Source: Nitrososphaeria archaeon (lineage in GTDB: Archaea > Thermoproteota > Nitrososphaeria > Geothermarchaeales > JDFR-13). From it: a stretch of 64,000 nucleotides of DNA. Position 1 is the first letter of the stretch; each line of letters begins with the position of its first letter. The translations under genes and the position numbers were made by a program. Under the pieces are notes generated by a model that was not told where the DNA came from, did not search any database, and saw nothing but the letters and a program-made list of their open reading frames with translations. Below are positions 2,063 through 10,622 of this stretch, piece by piece. The stretch lies in assembly GCA_027078545.1 (NCBI GenBank), contig JALWXN010000004.1, forward strand, positions 192,001 through 256,000. Direction: 5' to 3'.

Positions 2063-3561
<1,499 letters not shown>

Positions 3562-3615: not shown

Positions 3616-3660
3616 TTTTGTTATGTTGTTTGTTGTGCTATTGTTTTGATTGTTGTTTCT
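3616..3660 (+). terminator. U-rich tracts after the 16S processing stem, likely the terminator region
   Basis: TTTTG and TTGTTTTG runs immediately after the stem. Confidence 0.4.
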
Positions 3661-4532
3661 AGGTGTTTGTTGAGTTGTTGTGTTGTTTTTGGTGGGTTGG
3701 TTGTTTCTATTCTGTTTTTTCGGGTTTGTTTGTAGTTGTGGGGTTTTAGTGTTTTTTTGAGTTTTTGTAGGGTTTTTTGTTTGTTGGTTTCGATTCTTAT
3801 TATGTATCCTTGTGGTTCGTCGTAGATCATTAGGGTTATGTGTGTGTCTGGCTGGGGTTTGTAGTGTGCCTCTATTTGTGGCCATCCCCAGTTCTGTGTT
3901 GATTCTAGGATTGGTGGTAGGTTGTTTTTGAGTGATTCTTCGAGTATTTTTCGGGCTATGTCTAGGTATGTCCTCATCTTCTCCCTCTTTGTTTGTTGGC
4001 GTGGGCGGGTGTGTCTTGTTATTCGTTCTTGTGTTACTTGTTTGAGTGTGTCTATTCCTTGTCTGACTAGGTTTTTTATGTGGGTTGTGTCGAGGGTTTC
4101 TAGTCTGTATCTGAGGATGGTGAATGCTACTCCGTCTGGGTGGATCTGTTCCTCTATGTCTAGTCCTTGTTGCCGTAGCTTCTCCGCGTTTTTTCTGCGT
4201 ATGTGGTGGTATTTGAAGGCTTCTGGGTATTTCTGCATTAGTTGTTGTAGGAATTCTCCTTTCCATGCTCCTTCCATTGGTTTTACTTCTTCCCATTCCT
4301 GGTCTAGGTCGAAGAGGATTGTTTCGAAGATCTTCTCTTTTGGTGTCTCGAGGGCTAGGATCATGTTGTCCATGTCTATCCAGATGGCTTCTATGGAGTA
4401 GTCCTCGATCAGGCTTACGGTTACTGATCGGTGGTCTATGGCTGTGGCTATCTCTGGGGGTATGGTCTCGTCCTCTAGTACTAGCTCGGTTATGACCCTC
4501 ATCAGGTCGTATGCCTTTGTTAGGCTCCTCAT
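3621..4532 (-). CDS. Hypothetical protein, paralog of 5293..6222
   Basis: Shares L..L...YPEAF....R..A.K core with the 309-aa ORF; ATG at 4532 preceded by SD-like GAGGGGGG (ORF is open to 4556). Confidence 0.75.
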   Translation of the reverse strand: MRSLTKAYDLMRVITELVLEDETIPPEIATAIDHRSVTVSLIEDYSIEAIWIDMDNMILALETPKEKIFETILFDLDQEWEEVKPMEGAWKGEFLQQLMQKYPEAFKYHHIRRKNAEKLRQQGLDIEEQIHPDGVAFTILRYRLETLDTTHIKNLVRQGIDTLKQVTQERITRHTRPRQQTKREKMRTYLDIARKILEESLKNNLPPILESTQNWGWPQIEAHYKPQPDTHITLMIYDEPQGYIIRIETNKQKTLQKLKKTLKPHNYKQTRKNRIETTNPPKTTQQLNKHLETTIKTIAQQTT

Positions 4533-4665
4533 AACTCCCCCCTCTTCTCCTCCCAATGTAAGATGTAATCTTGGGGTATGGCTGTTTTAACTTATTTCTT
4601 GACTAGGTTATCTGTGTCTGGAGAGTGTATTGGTTAAATTTTGATTTAGATATCTATTTTTTGGA

Positions 4666-5331
4666 ATGAGGCTTGCTTTACTGTCTCTCGCTTTGGGAGC
4701 CATATTTCTATATGTTGTCCTTAGTTATCCTCTGGTCTATCCTCTAGCTGAAAAAGATGGTAGAAGGGTATGTCTCGACTTAGAGGCGCTGGAGATAGAT
4801 ATGACGATTATCGTTGTTGGTGAGACTAGTGCCTATGTAGATGGGGTTATAGAGGTGTATATAGATAGGGGTATGGGGGTTGTACGTCTAGAGCCTGATG
4901 ATCTAGATGATTTTGACTGGATGGAGGTTGATGGGCTCGGCATAGTCGTGTTCTATGGCGATTGGCTGGCCAGCCATGTGTCAGACCCGAGGATAGCAGG
5001 CTTTATTGCTGAAATCGAGTTTGATAGGATAGGTCTTGTAGCGATCGATGGCAATACATCTAGCCTCTTTACCCTTCTGGATATGGTGGGTATCTATAAA
5101 CTTGTACAAGAGGGTGGTGTAAAGTGGAACCCTGCATATTCAAATCCTCATGTGGTGGGGTATATGCATCTTGAGGGGGTGATGCCTAATGGAAGCATAT
5201 ACTACTTCCCCTCGATCTTAATGTCGAATAGTAGGCTTGAGATAGATGCGGCTATCGCGATTGCCAATTGGATGGCTGGTGAAGACTACGAGTCAGAGCT
5301 GGACTGTGAATGGGTCCAGCTCCCGGGGTAG
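4666..5331 (+). CDS. Hypothetical secreted or membrane-anchored acidic protein
   Basis: N-terminal hydrophobic signal/anchor; 221-aa ORF; AT-rich promoter-like region upstream. Confidence 0.7.
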   Translation: MRLALLSLALGAIFLYVVLSYPLVYPLAEKDGRRVCLDLEALEIDMTIIVVGETSAYVDGVIEVYIDRGMGVVRLEPDDLDDFDWMEVDGLGIVVFYGDWLASHVSDPRIAGFIAEIEFDRIGLVAIDGNTSSLFTLLDMVGIYKLVQEGGVKWNPAYSNPHVVGYMHLEGVMPNGSIYYFPSILMSNSRLEIDAAIAIANWMAGEDYESELDCEWVQLPG

Positions 5332-6222
5332 TGTATCCCTAATCCACTGCCTCAGTCTTAGTGTTCCTATGAATACTTCTCTGTATAGTAGCTTCTCTGT
5401 ATGGAGTGTCTCTTTATACCTGCCCGTCTCTAGTAGTTCCCGGCGTTTCTCGGGTGTCGCGGGCCTCATCACTACATGGTATTTATGGCTGTCCATCTCT
5501 ATCTCTAGGGCTTTGACCAGCCTGCTCTTCTCCGTTCTGATATGGATCGCCGTGGGGGTCAGGTTGGATAGGTATACTGCCTGGGGTGTCTCGCCGATCC
5601 TGAGTAGGCTCTTCAGAGCAGTCTTCGCGGTCTCGTATAGCTCGTCTGTCGTCCTGGTCTCCCCCCTCCTATAGTAGGGATCGGCGGCGTCTCGATCCCT
5701 ACCCATCTCCCTACACCATCTCTGGAATGCCTCGGTGGCCTCCCTTGTCCTTGCGAGTATCTCGCCCGGCCCCCACCTGGCTATACGGAGCTTTAGCCTC
5801 GTATATGTATAGCTGTTCCGATCCACAATCGTCTCCAGCCTAATATTCATCTCCCTCGAGACTTTCTGAGCCGCCTCACGGGACATATCTAGATGTCTGA
5901 AGGCCTCGGGATACCTCTCCCTAAGGCTCTCTAGGGTGCTGGGGCTACTCCAGTCATCCACGTCCGAGAACTCGTCCTCCGCCCCGGGGTATAGCTGGGC
6001 TATCATCTCGGCTAGCTCATAGCCACCGCTCCTCGCCTCTAGCAGCCTGCCCTGCCGCCTAAGCTCCAGCTCCTCCAGCCTATCATCATCTAGGGTGATG
6101 AGGACCCTCCCCTCGTTTATGGATATGGAATAGTATGGGGCGAATATCGTCTCCCCGATTAGGTGCTTGGCGGCCAGATACGACATATCCAGGTTCTCCC
6201 GGATCTTCCCATGTCTAGTCAT
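5293..6222 (-). CDS. Hypothetical protein, third gene of the TGT-like/nuclease operon, paralog of 3621..4532
   Basis: ATG overlaps the upstream stop by 8 nt; YPEAF motif shared with the paralog. Confidence 0.8.
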   Translation of the reverse strand: MTRHGKIRENLDMSYLAAKHLIGETIFAPYYSISINEGRVLITLDDDRLEELELRRQGRLLEARSGGYELAEMIAQLYPGAEDEFSDVDDWSSPSTLESLRERYPEAFRHLDMSREAAQKVSREMNIRLETIVDRNSYTYTRLKLRIARWGPGEILARTREATEAFQRWCREMGRDRDAADPYYRRGETRTTDELYETAKTALKSLLRIGETPQAVYLSNLTPTAIHIRTEKSRLVKALEIEMDSHKYHVVMRPATPEKRRELLETGRYKETLHTEKLLYREVFIGTLRLRQWIRDTLPRELDPFTVQL

Positions 6223-7441
6223 CTCGATCCCTCCAAAGGATTATGTATCCCTTATTACTCCTATGGTCGTAGCCAATTATTACGACAATTCTGGATAGTT
6301 TTTCCACCCGCCGATTCAGTAGGTCCTTTCCAACTACTCGTGTCAGCAGATCATAGTATTCACTGACTTGTTTAACGGCATTCTTTAAGGATCTCCTCCC
6401 TTCCCTTTCTTCAAACCTATACTTTATCTCTGCTACATACATCTCATTCTCGATAAATCCTATTATATCGGGTCTGCGATTAGCGAGGATCTCCCTTAAT
6501 ACATCTTTATAGGGATCGTGTTTAGTGGGCTCAACATACACTTCACGTATTCCGATGCTGTACAGGAAATTGATGGCTAAACTCTTCCCCAGGACGTCTC
6601 TTTTAGTCATGAACCCATCATTCCTTCCTTCTAGACGGTCTTTATGACTCTCCCTCATTATGGTGTCGGCTAGACTTCTAAGATTTTCATCCCTTATCCT
6701 GTATGTATACCTCTCTACTTCCAAGCCCGCTATTCTGGTTTTCTCTTTTTCGAGTATCTCCAACGAATCCGAAATAGGTTTAAAAAGCTTCTTCTTAACA
6801 TTCTTCTCGACGTCAAGAGACGTCTTCTTAAGCTTCTTTCCATGTCTGTAGTATAGATCGATGCTATATAGGGAGCTCTCTAACTTCTCGACTCTGTAAA
6901 CTGCTGGTCTAGATCCTCGCCTAGGTTCTACTATCCATAAATTAGCTTTTCCAAGTTTCATCTGAAACTTGAGTGTTACTACTTGACCTGCACGTGTTTT
7001 GCTGGGATACTCAGCTAGTAGTGCCACTCCACATCCTCTCTCCTTTTCATAGCTCCATCTCTCAGTGGATAGATATACGTCTCCCATCTTGACTACTATC
7101 TGGTTTATGTTGATGCTTAGAACTATTGGTAAGGTTTTCCTTATCGCTTCGTTAAAGTCTTTTATAAAATTGTAGACGTTGAAGGGTTTGATATTTACCC
7201 AATATTCCCCAGGCTTAAGGCCGCTAAACATTATTTCCTTCTCTTTCTCGCCCCCAAGGTGTCTCCAGTAGTAGATATACTGTTCTCCATCGTGGATCTC
7301 TAATTTGAAGACATCTGTACCCAGCATGTCGCGGGCATATTCAAATGTCAGACCGTGAATAACCAGTGTAGGGTATTTACCTCTCCTAATGACCGCGTTT
7401 GCAAGTATCTCAATGGACTCAGGCCTTATAGTTTCTCCCAC
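6215..7441 (-). CDS. Protein with C-terminal PD-(D/E)xK nuclease domain
   Basis: RRPDIIG...VAEIK...AVKQVSEY gives PD, ExK and QxxxY motifs; lower GC than neighbours. Confidence 0.75.
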   Translation of the reverse strand: MGETIRPESIEILANAVIRRGKYPTLVIHGLTFEYARDMLGTDVFKLEIHDGEQYIYYWRHLGGEKEKEIMFSGLKPGEYWVNIKPFNVYNFIKDFNEAIRKTLPIVLSININQIVVKMGDVYLSTERWSYEKERGCGVALLAEYPSKTRAGQVVTLKFQMKLGKANLWIVEPRRGSRPAVYRVEKLESSLYSIDLYYRHGKKLKKTSLDVEKNVKKKLFKPISDSLEILEKEKTRIAGLEVERYTYRIRDENLRSLADTIMRESHKDRLEGRNDGFMTKRDVLGKSLAINFLYSIGIREVYVEPTKHDPYKDVLREILANRRPDIIGFIENEMYVAEIKYRFEEREGRRSLKNAVKQVSEYYDLLTRVVGKDLLNRRVEKLSRIVVIIGYDHRSNKGYIILWRDRDD

Positions 7442-7444
7442 GGT

Positions 7445-9037
7445 TTACACACCGTGTTCCTTAGATTTTCCAAATAGTTGGAATGGATTTACACCCTCTA
7501 GGATCTCCACTTCTCCGCTATGGGTGATGTATACTCCTCCGGGTCTTAGTAGTCTGGCTGGTTCTCTGTAGGATCCCCACCTCCCAGGCGTGGCTATCCT
7601 CCTCTCCCTGTCTATGTAGGGCTCTTCGATATAGTCTGTTACTAGCCATCCATCCTCACCTATCCCCCTGCCTAGATCCTCGATGGCCGCCTCCCTGGGT
7701 TTTCCACTGGGGCCTAGAAGCCTAATAGTCACGTCGAAGCCTCCTCCCCAGGTCTCCTTCCTTATGGTCATGGATCCCCATCTAGCTGTTAGGACTAGTC
7801 TGGTGACTAGTTCTCTAACCTGGGCTTCACCCTGGTCAGGACTCTCCTCTACTAGGTCTATACCCCTGTATAGGAGGCTGTCGAGTAGGCGGCCTATGTT
7901 GGCCCTGCCTGGCGGCATGTCCCATACCAGGATTATCCTGGTGTCCCGATGTGTATCTATCCATGCTCTAAACTCTTCCAGCACTTGTATGGATATCCGG
8001 CTGGTGTCGAATACCCGGCCCGTCAGGACTAGGTATCTAGGCCTATGCTCACCAGCCATCTTGAGGCCCAGTCTCCATAGGCTGTGCCTCCCACCTATCA
8101 TGAGGTCGTTTAGTATCAAGAGGTCGTCATACGTCTCTAGGATGAGGTCGTATCTCTCCACCCTGTAGTCCCTACTCTCCTCCCCAGCGTAGTGCCTAAT
8201 CAGTTCACGGCTTATCATGAGGTTGTGGAGGGATATGTACCGCCTCTCCCTCCTGAGCCTAGGCCCCGTGGCCAGGCACACATCGCAGTTACAGTGGTAG
8301 AACCCCCTCCTAATGTCTATGGCCTCGCCCAGCCCTCCATACACCGTCATCCTAGTGGCGTCGATAAACCATGAGTATCCAGCCAGCCTTATCCTCTCCG
8401 GATCCAGAGCCATCAGGTCGGGGATGTGCCTAGGCCCGGCCCCACCAAGTACCAACACCTCCTTGAATGGGTATTCGAGGATGAGCTCTAGGAGGTGCTT
8501 CAGATATTCATGGGTGTATCTGATGCCTGCTAGCCCAGCCCTCCTGAGGTAGGGCTCTATATACTGGTTTGTGGATAGGTAGGGAGACGCATGTATAGCC
8601 ACGGTCTCGAAGCCCAGCTCAGCCAGCCTCTCACATGCATATCTCTTATGCTCGGGGTAAGCCCCCTTTACAAGGGGTATTATGTTGAACCTCCCCCTAA
8701 GCCTCTCCACCACCTCTAGAGACTTCAATGTGTTTCGCCAGCTGGCCTCCTCATCGTCTAGATATGTGGGGGTGTCCCAGGCTATTATATAGTCGAAGCC
8801 ATGCTCCGAGGCGAATCCTAGGAAGTCTTGTAGCGTCTCCTCCCTCTCCAGATACTCGTCAGGCATGATGCTTGAGAGTATCAGCTTTATACCGGGGTTG
8901 GCCTCCCTAATAAGACGTATATCCTCCGGGCTTATCACCACCTCGTAGTATGGTAGGACTGCATATCCAAAGTGGTGGGCCGCCTCGGCGAAGATCCTCA
9001 ACGCGTCTCTACCGACTATGGGGATGAAGTGGTCCAT
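7445..9037 (-). CDS. TGT-fold (tRNA-guanine transglycosylase-like) domain fused to a degenerate calcineurin-like metallophosphoesterase domain
   Basis: WDTPT, PLVKG, VLVLG and CNCDVC...SLHNL Zn site; C-terminal LILNDLMIG, LVLTGRVFD and TPGRWG. Confidence 0.75.
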   Translation of the reverse strand: MDHFIPIVGRDALRIFAEAAHHFGYAVLPYYEVVISPEDIRLIREANPGIKLILSSIMPDEYLEREETLQDFLGFASEHGFDYIIAWDTPTYLDDEEASWRNTLKSLEVVERLRGRFNIIPLVKGAYPEHKRYACERLAELGFETVAIHASPYLSTNQYIEPYLRRAGLAGIRYTHEYLKHLLELILEYPFKEVLVLGGAGPRHIPDLMALDPERIRLAGYSWFIDATRMTVYGGLGEAIDIRRGFYHCNCDVCLATGPRLRRERRYISLHNLMISRELIRHYAGEESRDYRVERYDLILETYDDLLILNDLMIGGRHSLWRLGLKMAGEHRPRYLVLTGRVFDTSRISIQVLEEFRAWIDTHRDTRIILVWDMPPGRANIGRLLDSLLYRGIDLVEESPDQGEAQVRELVTRLVLTARWGSMTIRKETWGGGFDVTIRLLGPSGKPREAAIEDLGRGIGEDGWLVTDYIEEPYIDRERRIATPGRWGSYREPARLLRPGGVYITHSGEVEILEGVNPFQLFGKSKEHGV

Positions 9038-9189: not shown

Positions 9190-9441
9190 GTGCTGGTAAC
9201 GGTGTCTATAAAGGTTAGGAGGGAGGTCGTGGATCTGGCTGATAAGATGGTCCGCCTCGGCCTGGCTAGGAGTAGGTCCCACGCCTTCAACAGGATGATT
9301 GAGAAGGGTCTGGATAAGATTCGGGAGGAGGTGGGCTTCTGGGAGGATACGCTCATTAGGCTTGAGGATCTCTCCAGATCTGGTTATAGGATCAGGCATG
9401 GAGGCCTCTCGAGGCTTTTGGTGGAGGGTAGGAGCAGGTGA
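9190..9441 (+). CDS. Putative VapB-type antitoxin (ribbon-helix-helix-like)
   Basis: VTVSIKV strand plus SRSHAFNRMI helix; GTGA overlap with the downstream PIN gene. Confidence 0.65.
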   Translation: MLVTVSIKVRREVVDLADKMVRLGLARSRSHAFNRMIEKGLDKIREEVGFWEDTLIRLEDLSRSGYRIRHGGLSRLLVEGRSR

Positions 9442-9839
9442 TATGTCTAGACACAGATATAATTATCTCCTACCTCGACGAGCTGGATCCTAACCATCAA
9501 ACAGCTGTGGAGCTCCTATCAGGGATACGTGGCAGGAGAGTGGTGAGCTGGTTGACCATAGTCGAGCTATCCAGCGTCTATTCACGGGCGGGTATGGAGT
9601 CTCCAGCAGCGCTGGCCCTATACTCCATCGAGAAGGTAGGAGCCGAGCTGGTCGACCTAGACATGGAGACGGTCATTAGGGAGGCCCTCAAACTATCCAG
9701 CCGGCTACGCCTTAAGACACTCGACCTGCTACACATATCTGCCTCCCTACAGGCCGGGTGTAGGTTCTTCATGACGCTGGACAAGGAGATTAGGAAGGCG
9801 TCTGATGAGATTGGGAAGATGGGGATTAGGATAATATGA
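9438..9839 (+). CDS. vapC: PIN-domain toxin (VapC family)
   Basis: LDTDII, TIVEL, TLDLLH and MTLDK acidic PIN motifs; 133 aa. Confidence 0.9.
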   Translation: MICLDTDIIISYLDELDPNHQTAVELLSGIRGRRVVSWLTIVELSSVYSRAGMESPAALALYSIEKVGAELVDLDMETVIREALKLSSRLRLKTLDLLHISASLQAGCRFFMTLDKEIRKASDEIGKMGIRII

Positions 9840-9951: not shown

Positions 9952-10028
9952 GGGCCCGTAGCTCAGCCTGGCGGAGCACCGGGCTCATAACCCGGGGGTC
10001 GTGGGTTCAAATCCCACCGGGCCCACCA
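9952..10028 (+). tRNA. tRNA-Ile2 (CAT, agmatidine type), CCA encoded
   Basis: Cloverleaf with CAT anticodon and GGGCCCG acceptor stem typical of archaeal Ile; a separate elongator Met lies at 56049. Confidence 0.85.
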
Positions 10029-10073: not shown

Positions 10074-10622
10074 ATGGTTCTCAGGGTGGGGCTCTACACC
10101 AATAATAGGGCTAAGATAGAGGGTGTCTATAGGGTCTTCGAGGAGCTCTATAGGGATGTCGAGCTGGTGACTAGTGGATCCGGGCTAGTCTTAAAGGATC
10201 AGCCCACATCCCTCGAAGAGATTGTGGAGGGAGCTGTTGCTAGGGCTAGGCATATGATACACAACTTCGATGTGGACTATGGCGTGGGTGTGGAGGCCGG
10301 TGTCTCCCCCCTAGGGCTATATGGTGTATACATAGTTCTACAGGTAGCCGCTGTGACGAGGGATGGGATAGGCTTTGGGCTGGGCGGCTCCTCAGCCTAT
10401 TTCATAGACCATAGCCTAGGCTCCAGGATCGTTAGTAGCTCCATGGCGCGTGTACTGGAGAGTATAACTGGTGATCCTAGCATGAGGGAGTCGAAGGGCT
10501 TCATAGGCTACCTGACCCGGGGAAAGGTTGATAGGGCTGTGCTGACATATGAGGCTACCCGGAACGCGCTCCACACCTTTCTAAATGGCCATGTATTCAA
10601 GATGCCTAGTAAGGATCTCTAG
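10074..10622 (+). CDS. yjjX: Inosine/xanthosine triphosphatase (YjjX/DUF84 family)
   Basis: TNNRAKI, DQPTS..EI..GA..RA, GVGVEAG and GFIGYLT.G...R motifs. Confidence 0.8.
   Translation: MVLRVGLYTNNRAKIEGVYRVFEELYRDVELVTSGSGLVLKDQPTSLEEIVEGAVARARHMIHNFDVDYGVGVEAGVSPLGLYGVYIVLQVAAVTRDGIGFGLGGSSAYFIDHSLGSRIVSSSMARVLESITGDPSMRESKGFIGYLTRGKVDRAVLTYEATRNALHTFLNGHVFKMPSKDL

Follow-up and report, generated by a model that had tools for sequence, protein, structure and literature searches.

The window analysed here is a 64,000-nucleotide (nt) stretch of contig JALWXN010000004.1 from a Nitrososphaeria archaeon. It carries on its minus strand a three-gene cassette opened by gene 1, in which a barrel of the tRNA-guanine transglycosylase (TGT) fold is joined to a degenerate metallophosphoesterase (MPE) domain. 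The genes of the cassette and their principal parts, with lengths in amino acids (aa), are as follows.

7445..9037, minus strand: gene 1 (TGT-MPE), a 530-aa open reading frame (ORF) encoding a TGT-like barrel and a degenerate MPE domain; first gene of the cassette.
8174..9037, minus strand: TGT-fold (beta/alpha)8 barrel with zinc subdomain, residues 1-288, recognized by Foldseek, VIA, hhalign and PADLOC.
7445..8173, minus strand: degenerate MPE domain, residues 289-530, recognized by motif alignment with relatives and by ESM Atlas and BFVD matches.
6215..7441, minus strand: gene 2 (g408), 408 aa, with a Met-Gly-Glu tail, an all-beta N-terminal part and a C-terminal PD-(D/E)xK domain.
7433..7441, minus strand: gene 2 N-terminus, GTG-GGA-GAA (Met-Gly-Glu), this clade's version of Met-Gly-Gln-[Tyr/Phe/Leu].
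6422..6472, minus strand: gene 2 catalytic motif PD-x12-ExK, residues 324-340.
5293..6222, minus strand: gene 3 (g309), 309 aa, of unknown family; always after gene 2 in this clade.

Searches of Pfam and NCBIfam with the gene 1 protein returned nothing at E <= 1, the threshold of the Pfam TGT family (PF01702) not being reached, and a PF01702 search of the window's genome did not pick up the gene; PHROGs gave nothing useful. The PADLOC 'TGT' model was the sole library hidden Markov model to match the protein (E 4e-12, residues 50-165). With an AlphaFold2 model of gene 1 (predicted local distance difference test score, pLDDT, 87.8), Foldseek placed the archaeosine TGT (ArcTGT) entries 1j2b and 1iq8 at the top of the PDB matches (E ~2e-8), and VIA, with its TGT-fold matches all over residues 1-288, gave ArcTGT 1iq8 as the best match (Z 23.2, root-mean-square deviation 3.3 over 266 residues, 20% identity). 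Further VIA matches were DpdA 7ui4 (Z 20.5), bacterial TGT 3unt (Z 20.1), QTRT2 (Z 19.1) and Cap10 9ntn_B (Z 16.7), with generic TIM barrels ranking below Cap10 (Z <= 14.6). Alignment of a 25-sequence gene 1 family profile with crenarchaeal ArcTGTs by hhalign had a probability of 99.3%. The initial annotation of this gene, made from the DNA letters, had assigned the N-terminal part to the TGT barrels and proposed superposition on known TGTs as a check; the assignment is borne out by all three methods, and ArcTGT 1iq8, bacterial TGT and DpdA each superpose on the barrel. No PUA domain was matched in Pfam or NCBIfam, the C-terminal half having the MPE fold instead; the protein is therefore neither ArcTGT nor ArcS, as had been proposed.

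An exhaustive phmmer search with gene 1 recovered 66 relatives, those of 500-617 aa aligning over both domains. Full-length homologues number 14 or 15 (33-94% identity), and all come from Thermoprotei-type metagenomes; a search for fused, longer forms found none, which is weak evidence. The initial annotation had not recognized this architecture. It is no orphan: the window clade is a derived branch of a Thermoproteota-only superfamily of 'LSxxMPDE' TGT-like barrels, in whose other members the MPE motifs are intact or the MPE domain is absent, the TGT nucleophile being absent in all. No description of a TGT barrel-MPE fusion, or of the gene 1 family, was found in the literature searched. A TGT-like profile run over 401 genomes of the phylum gave 30 positives. 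In one other genus 14 of 17 genomes were positive, with copy numbers that reach 6 or more, and within the window's class strong matches were confined to its own taxonomic family (8/13 genomes, up to 3 copies). Orthologues at the syntenic site share 42% identity within the genus, and one strain has decayed partner genes. Patchy, multi-copy and linked to nuclease genes, this distribution is defence-like or selfish.

Gene 1 opens a conserved, translationally coupled cassette, TGT-MPE/g408/g309. The gene 1 stop codon lies 3 nt from the start of gene 2, and genes 2 and 3 overlap by 8 nt; at other loci the junction between gene 1 and its partner varies between a 14-nt overlap and a gap of 16 nt, apart from two loci at 43 nt and L056 at 80 nt. 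The complete trio is present in the window's own genome (G000), in G007 (three cassettes), in G009 and on metagenome contig L001, while in G008, G013 and L004 the cassette is only partial, some of these copies being cut by contig ends. In G007 two complete cassettes lie back to back (L026:3595-11212), in the order g408-g309-TGT-MPE on the plus strand and then TGT-MPE-g408-g309 on the minus strand, with a third copy 40 kb away. One metagenome contig has a toxin-antitoxin insertion between gene 1 and genes 2 and 3.

Identification of gene 2 as a nuclease rests on its C-terminal domain. VIA comparison of its AlphaFold2 model (pLDDT 84.7) gave modest scores (Z 5-7.3), with about 43 of 50 rows being PD-(D/E)xK proteins of the Hjc, NucS, HsdR, Cas4 and lambda-exonuclease types, matched over residues 275-408; the remaining rows were unrelated folds placed on the N-terminal part. 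In the g408 alignment P324, D325, E338 and K340 of the catalytic motif are invariant, as is G2. Residues 1-9 are low-confidence coil in the model, which is consistent with a free tail. A Foldseek search with the gene 2 model gave no match at E <= 0.001, and PADLOC and Pfam searches of genes 2 and 3 and other neighbours returned nothing; gene 3 had no Pfam, PDB-profile or PADLOC match. A 437-aa protein consisting of two tandem copies of the gene 2 all-beta N-terminal domain, with no nuclease domain, is encoded at L004:1662-2975, 1.3 kb upstream of a cassette.

Elsewhere in the superfamily the partner gene is of other types. At all 12 wide-family loci examined, a TGT-MPE gene with intact MPE motifs is followed immediately by a gene for a partner of 385-850 aa. 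The partners form one homologous family, with sub-threshold HTH_26 and LAGLIDADG_3 matches; a PDB profile search with the family returned nothing credible. Comparison with g408 by hhalign gave a probability of 0.2%, so no homology is claimed between the two partner families. A stand-alone TGT-like form of about 365 aa, with neither the MPE domain nor the nucleophile, shares the motifs LS(S/T/M)(I/V)MPDE, xDxxTY and (L/V)KGA with the superfamily, and in 6 of 8 loci a partner of about 300 aa comes next. All three of the stand-alone partners scanned contain LAGLIDADG_3 (PF14528) above threshold (E 1.7e-16, 1.8e-16 and 2.7e-10), and PADLOC called a homing endonuclease in two of the three. In a split form (L020:1002-3176), adjacent genes encode a TGT-like protein (237 aa) and an MPE (373 aa, Pfam Metallophos_2), and the next gene encodes a 110-aa protein starting Met-Gly-Gln-Tyr.

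Several further genes were observed near these relatives. The 110-aa protein of the split locus adjoins a HEPN/nucleotidyltransferase toxin-antitoxin pair. At L059-L066, from other Thermoproteota, the stand-alone TGT-like gene and a LAGLIDADG_3 protein starting Met-Gly-Gly-Gly-Ser are accompanied by a conserved unknown of about 220 aa with the N-terminus K-I-T-V-W-G-W-G-D. A Ham1 (non-canonical purine NTPase) gene lies directly upstream of the stand-alone form, at three closely related loci only. A HhH-GPD (EndoIII/OGG-like) glycosylase gene lies just upstream of a wide-family TGT-MPE gene at a single locus (L053:6519-7211), which may be chance; the OGG-like protein Cap11 is frequent in type IV cyclic-oligonucleotide-based antiphage signalling systems (CBASS).

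The start of the downstream nuclease, Met-Gly-Gln/Glu, is the only family-wide feature of the partners that we found. At about 30 loci the partner N-terminus reads Met-Gly-(Gln/Glu/Gly/Ser), on nucleases of LAGLIDADG or PD-(D/E)xK type that are mutually non-homologous. Every adjacent partner begins with Met-Gly, and the 23 scored all start x-G-Q/E; neither G2 nor Q3 varies in the wide partner family, nor does G2 in g408. Most of the window's family, like the wide family, has the tail Met-Gly-Gln-[Tyr/Phe/Leu], and the window's immediate clade has Met-Gly-Glu, while partners of the stand-alone form start M-G-(G/S/E) in 6 of 8 loci. The codons used in the start region include all four for Gly and both for Gln, with ATG, GTG and TTG as start codons; given this variation, it is the protein that is under selection, not a sequence for translation coupling. 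The complex of Cap10 with CdnD would, by analogy, predict a conserved Gly2 on non-homologous partners. In that complex, from type IV CBASS, the base pocket of a TGT-fold protein (D73, S74, D122 and K154) binds the Gly2 adduct of its partner: Gly2 of the cGAS/DncV-like nucleotidyltransferase (CD-NTase) CdnD, carrying 7-amido-7-deazaguanine, sits in the Cap10 base pocket, and K154 reads the base (bioRxiv 10.1101/2025.04.06.647259).

The residues of gene 1 that correspond to the active-site and zinc positions of TGTs are located as follows.

8855..8875, minus strand: SSIMPDE, residues 55-61, family signature LS(S/T/M)(I/V)MPD(E/K), in the TGT 'DSG' general acid/base region.
8765..8779, minus strand: WDTPT, residues 87-91; Asp88 corresponds to the Asp that recognises the base in TGTs, and the motif is nearly invariant in the family.
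8663..8671, minus strand: VKG, residues 123-125; Lys124-Gly125 in place of the TGT 'QG'.
8378..8392, minus strand: IRLAG, residues 216-220; Ala219 at the position of the TGT covalent nucleophile Asp.
8222..8293, minus strand: zinc motif C249-x-C251-x2-C254...H271-N272 (CNCDVC...HN, residues 249-272), invariant in the close family.

Every TGT motif string quoted in the initial annotation is found at these residues, and its reading of them was largely accurate. Both HMMER and hhalign pair the nucleophile Asp (D249 of the P. horikoshii enzyme, Ph; D280 of the Z. mobilis enzyme, Zm; DpdA D256; Cap10 D248) with Ala219, confirming the loss of the nucleophile that had been read from IRLAG; across the superfamily this position is A, S, G, C or V, and Asp in none. 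Asp226 (FIDA) was considered as a displaced nucleophile and ruled out: both programs choose Ala219, and Asp226 is S, A, E, Q or N in relatives. The zinc site and the base-binding Asp are kept, as had been noted: C249, C251, C254 and H271 pair, in a sequence-level comparison, with C279, C281, C284 and H307 of 1iq8, and Asp88 pairs with the base-recognising Asp of LDIPT (Zm D156, Ph ArcTGT D130, Cap10 D122). The zinc cysteines are gone in some wide-family members. Lys124 replaces the Gln of 'QG', in agreement with the earlier call of KG at this position, and matches Cap10 Lys154. The statement that 'DSG' reads SSIM is uncertain. HMMER does pair the 'DSG' Asp (Zm D102, Ph D95) with Ser55, but hhalign pairs it with Asp60, placing IMPDE on the ArcTGT sequence IMTDSG; the general acid/base may therefore not be lost, and the 'SSIM' call may be a five-residue misregister. 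Ser55 and Asp60 are both invariant in the family, and from this alignment Asp60 may be a stand-in for the 'DSG' Asp. Residue 152 is Pro in the window clade, whose partners start Met-Gly-Glu, and Glu, Gln or Asp elsewhere, a correlation with the partner tail that we do not count as evidence because it reflects a single evolutionary event. The gene 1 protein is best explained as a member of the TGT superfamily that is without catalysis or, at the least, non-canonical.

Because gene 1 sits just upstream of a gene for a Met-Gly-Gln/Glu nuclease, its role is probably control of that nuclease and not tRNA modification. By analogy with Cap10, gene 1 would encode a reader that performs no catalysis and grips the Gly tail of the partner nuclease, an interpretation that we put forward tentatively, as possible rather than probable. 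Removal of Met from the nuclease would expose a free N-terminal glycine tail, bare or with a base-like adduct. The former nucleobase pocket of the barrel, now remodelled, would hold this tail, a putative site in the barrel where Asp88 and Lys124 are kept and Ser55 and Asp60 are invariant being available for it, and the nuclease would be sequestered, or licensed, until a trigger releases it. The cassette would then act as a defence-type or addiction-type nuclease-control module. Tail-pocket contact, direction of regulation and biological role are what we infer from the folds, lost residues, cassette, N-terminal motif and purifying selection described here. The initial annotation had considered the gene alone and sought the ligand among bases and nucleotides. 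The gene opens a cassette that also encodes a PD-(D/E)xK nuclease, and the Met-Gly tail of the nuclease points by the same analogy to a protein N-terminal tail, possibly conjugated to a base, as the ligand of the barrel.

The same pocket residues could be read as a new active site. Ser55, Asp60, Gly125 and His149 are invariant in 25 diverse members, and with Asp60 set by hhalign at the general acid/base position, Ser55, Asp60 and Glu61, joined by His149 in the TGT-MPE branch, might carry out a non-canonical reaction (e.g. that of a hydrolytic N-glycosidase) on a nucleotide, a nucleic acid or the N-terminus of the partner. The intact MPE of relatives would fit an ancestral coupled chemistry on a phosphorylated substrate. 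However, His149 is Pro in stand-alone relatives, which have no MPE domain, and the canonical position has no nucleophile. TGT and DpdA share three invariant Asp residues in the active site, and mutation of either the nucleophile or the general acid abolishes exchange (PMC10164549), so that loss of either catalytic Asp is enough to end activity in these enzymes. We consider a new enzyme at this site distinctly unlikely.

The window's genome (92% complete) was searched for the deazaguanine pathway. It contains no PF01702 TGT, no QueD and no FolE, and for QueC, which like QueD and FolE was sought in this genome, gave only partial PP-loop matches (PF06508) in unrelated ORFs of 333-506 aa. A tblastn search with crenarchaeal ArcTGTs had gene 1 as the sole match (E 2e-5). 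Canonical TGT (PF01702) is absent from all 17 genomes of the window's order and ArcTGT is present in 13 of 14 genomes from other orders of the class; the window's lineage appears to have lost archaeosine altogether. With no nucleophile and no ArcTGT, QueC, QueD or FolE, deazaguanine exchange into tRNA or DNA from endogenous preQ0 is very unlikely. The lack of a canonical TGT throughout the order, together with ArcTGT being the closest homologue of gene 1 by both sequence and fold, might suggest that gene 1 is a housekeeping substitute, a divergent tRNA-modifying or tRNA-binding factor in an archaeosine-less lineage. Such a role is highly improbable: gene 1 occurs in only 8 of the 13 genomes of one taxonomic family, sister families likewise without ArcTGT do not have it, it is multi-copy and nuclease-linked, its syntenic orthologues diverge fast (the 42% identity within the genus given above), and there is neither a preQ0 pathway nor a nucleophile.

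The C-terminal domain was characterized through its relatives. In the window clade the MPE motifs read NDLMIG (motif I, H to M, residues 310-315), GRVFD (motif II, D to R, 340-344), WDMP (motif III, 372-375), LLG (motif IV) and TDYIEE (motif V, containing DYIE, 468-471), with TPGRW at 483-487; every His metal ligand is replaced, and beyond mere substitution the ligand positions vary within the clade. In the relatives of 500-617 aa the MPE half has SDLHxG, GDxFD, HGH and GHxH intact and gives Pfam Metallophos and Metallophos_2 matches. The gene 1 model aligns with a 599-aa MPE-bearing Thermoproteota cluster from the ESM Atlas (template modelling score 0.78, residues 1-515), a BFVD search returned phage SbcD, Mre11 and calcineurin-like proteins (E 1e-6 to 7e-5), and PDB profile matches of the MPE half, though weak, were all MPEs (SbcD/Mre11/YfcE). 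The strings quoted earlier for this half are all present, and the motif order with replaced metal ligands that had been read from them is upheld by the relatives' intact motifs and the Atlas and BFVD matches. As regards canonical chemistry, 'double pseudoenzyme' was the right description of gene 1. These relatives document the stepwise decay of an enzyme fusion, from live MPE to dead MPE to no MPE, around a constant core. In the window clade a structural relic or module is the best explanation for the MPE domain; inactivated MPE domains are kept as structural or interaction modules in, for example, the B-subunits of eukaryotic replicative polymerases.

Against an 89%-identical orthologue (dS ~0.6), the ratio of nonsynonymous to synonymous substitution rates (dN/dS) was 0.086 for the TGT part and 0.106 for the MPE part. 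Both domains are therefore under purifying selection and kept for a non-canonical role. This supports the earlier suggestion that both are retained; the ligand suggested for them was a base, nucleotide or cyclic nucleotide. In a small-molecule sensor both domains would receive a free base, nucleotide or cyclic nucleotide and signal to the cassette nuclease. Purifying selection on both domains and the conserved pocket residues Asp88 and Lys124 fit such a sensor, dead MPE domains can bind phosphorylated ligands, and a small molecule would suit a trigger that competes with the tail. We nevertheless think it improbable, since no nucleotide cyclase or other signal generator is present in the cassette or among the PADLOC matches, the MPE domain is dispensable in stand-alone relatives with the same operon logic, and the MPE ligand residues vary within the clade.

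Several observations weigh against a barrel that holds the nuclease tail. Contact between tail and pocket rests on analogy, and the analogue is imperfect, for Cap10 has its catalytic Asp248 but no longer a zinc site, and the gene 1 family, with a zinc site and no nucleophile, shows the reverse. There is no QueC-like conjugating enzyme in the cassette or genome, which makes a deazaguanine adduct unlikely here. Some of the N-terminal conservation seen in each partner family could be due to inheritance, and independent support then comes from three partner types only: g408, the LAGLIDADG-like family and the 110-aa protein of L020. In an 89%-identical relative (L003:9597-11450) TGT-MPE is intact and conserved, but genes 2 and 3 are disrupted and in part fused, leaving ORFs of 166, 320 and 103 aa, so gene 1 may have a separate role. 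Complex prediction from full TGT-MPE and gene 2 alignments scored 0.00 and gave no answer, and counts neither for nor against binding.

The retained zinc subdomain could equally mean that nucleic-acid binding has been kept. A barrel of this kind would flip out a base of DNA or RNA that resembles guanine and may be modified, bind it without exchanging it, and so target the partner nuclease, in a modification-dependent restriction system or a homing cassette. The zinc subdomain contacts nucleic acid in TGTs and is kept together with Asp88 and Lys124; the structural match second only to ArcTGT is DpdA, a TGT that acts on DNA (Z 20.5); the partners are DNA nucleases; and relatives have an intact SbcD/Mre11-like MPE. 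However, a nucleic-acid reader leaves the invariant Met-Gly-Gln/Glu start of non-homologous partners unexplained, the zinc cysteines are lost in some wide-family members, and the stacking and general-acid region is rewritten. We regard it as unlikely. Extended to the superfamily, the tail-reading proposal would make these genes an undescribed, Thermoproteota-wide class of nuclease-control systems in which a barrel, alone or with a live or dead MPE, reads the free N-terminal glycine of its co-translated partner, a LAGLIDADG or PD-(D/E)xK nuclease, possibly with a nucleobase or other adduct on that glycine; by analogy this is conceivable, and we hold it to be doubtful.

The cassette is flanked by the following features, of which the VapB-like/VapC, tRNA-Met and NTPase_I-T neighbours recur in L003.

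2063-3561: 16S rRNA gene.
3621..4556, minus strand: orphan gene 3 paralogue, 311 aa, with no accompanying gene 1 or gene 2, directly after the 16S gene (phmmer and HMM matches).
9190-9839: VapB-like/VapC (PIN) pair, flanking the cassette.
9952-10028: tRNA-Met, flanking the cassette.
10074-10622: NTPase_I-T (ITPase/XTPase-type, PF01931) gene, flanking the cassette.

Comparison with known systems sets the gene 1 family apart from each of them. SbcD/Mre11-type MPEs have the same fold and motif order, and the relatives of gene 1 keep all motifs, whereas the window clade has every His metal ligand replaced. DpdA shares the TGT fold (Z 20.5) and sits in a restriction-type gene cluster; it has three invariant Asp residues (95, 130 and 256) and needs preQ0 (PMC10164549), while gene 1 has no nucleophile and the window's genome no preQ0 synthesis. 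QTRT2, the non-catalytic subunit of eukaryotic TGT (PDB 6fv5), is like gene 1 a TGT-fold pseudoenzyme that keeps the zinc site (Z 19.1), but QTRT2 dimerises with an active TGT on tRNA, and the window's genome has no active TGT. ArcTGT (1iq8/1j2b), the best match by structure and sequence, has the zinc motif and base-binding Asp in common with gene 1; gene 1 differs in having no nucleophile Asp and no PUA or C-terminal (C1/C2) tRNA-binding domains, in falling below the Pfam TGT threshold, in its rewritten 'DSG' region and in its nuclease operon context.

The TGT superfamily has long been thought to act on nucleic acids only, and Cap10 (2025) is one TGT branch that grips a protein N-terminus. 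PADLOC and Pfam found no CBASS-type operon (CD-NTase, QueC-like Cap9, Cap effector) among the neighbours of gene 1, and unlike type IV CBASS the window's genome has no QueC-like Cap9, no OGG-like Cap11 and no deazaguanine pathway. Gene 1 and Cap10 have in common a TGT barrel, pocket Asp and Lys residues, Lys in place of the 'QG' Gln and an adjacently encoded partner; Cap10 is among the top structural matches of gene 1 (Z 16.7), which is also recognized by the PADLOC TGT model (E 4e-12). They differ in that Cap10 has Asp248 and the 'DS' Asp73 and no zinc site, while gene 1 has Ala at the nucleophile position, a zinc site and an extra MPE domain, and its partner is a nuclease and not a CD-NTase. 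If the proposed contact is true, the gene 1 family would represent a second, CBASS-independent use of an N-terminal tail in a transglycosylase pocket, and may be the basis of a new defence system of archaea or of a new selfish element; defence and selfish elements are poorly charted in archaea, and a conserved nuclease-control cassette is of interest there. Contact between Gly2 tail and pocket offers a concrete hypothesis for several unannotated families, of which some Thermoproteota genomes carry 6 or more copies. Beside Cap10, the gene 1 family would be a second and much larger archaeal branch of TGT-fold proteins that grip a protein N-terminus, with nucleases as partners, a different set of retained residues and, in the window's genome, no deazaguanine pathway.

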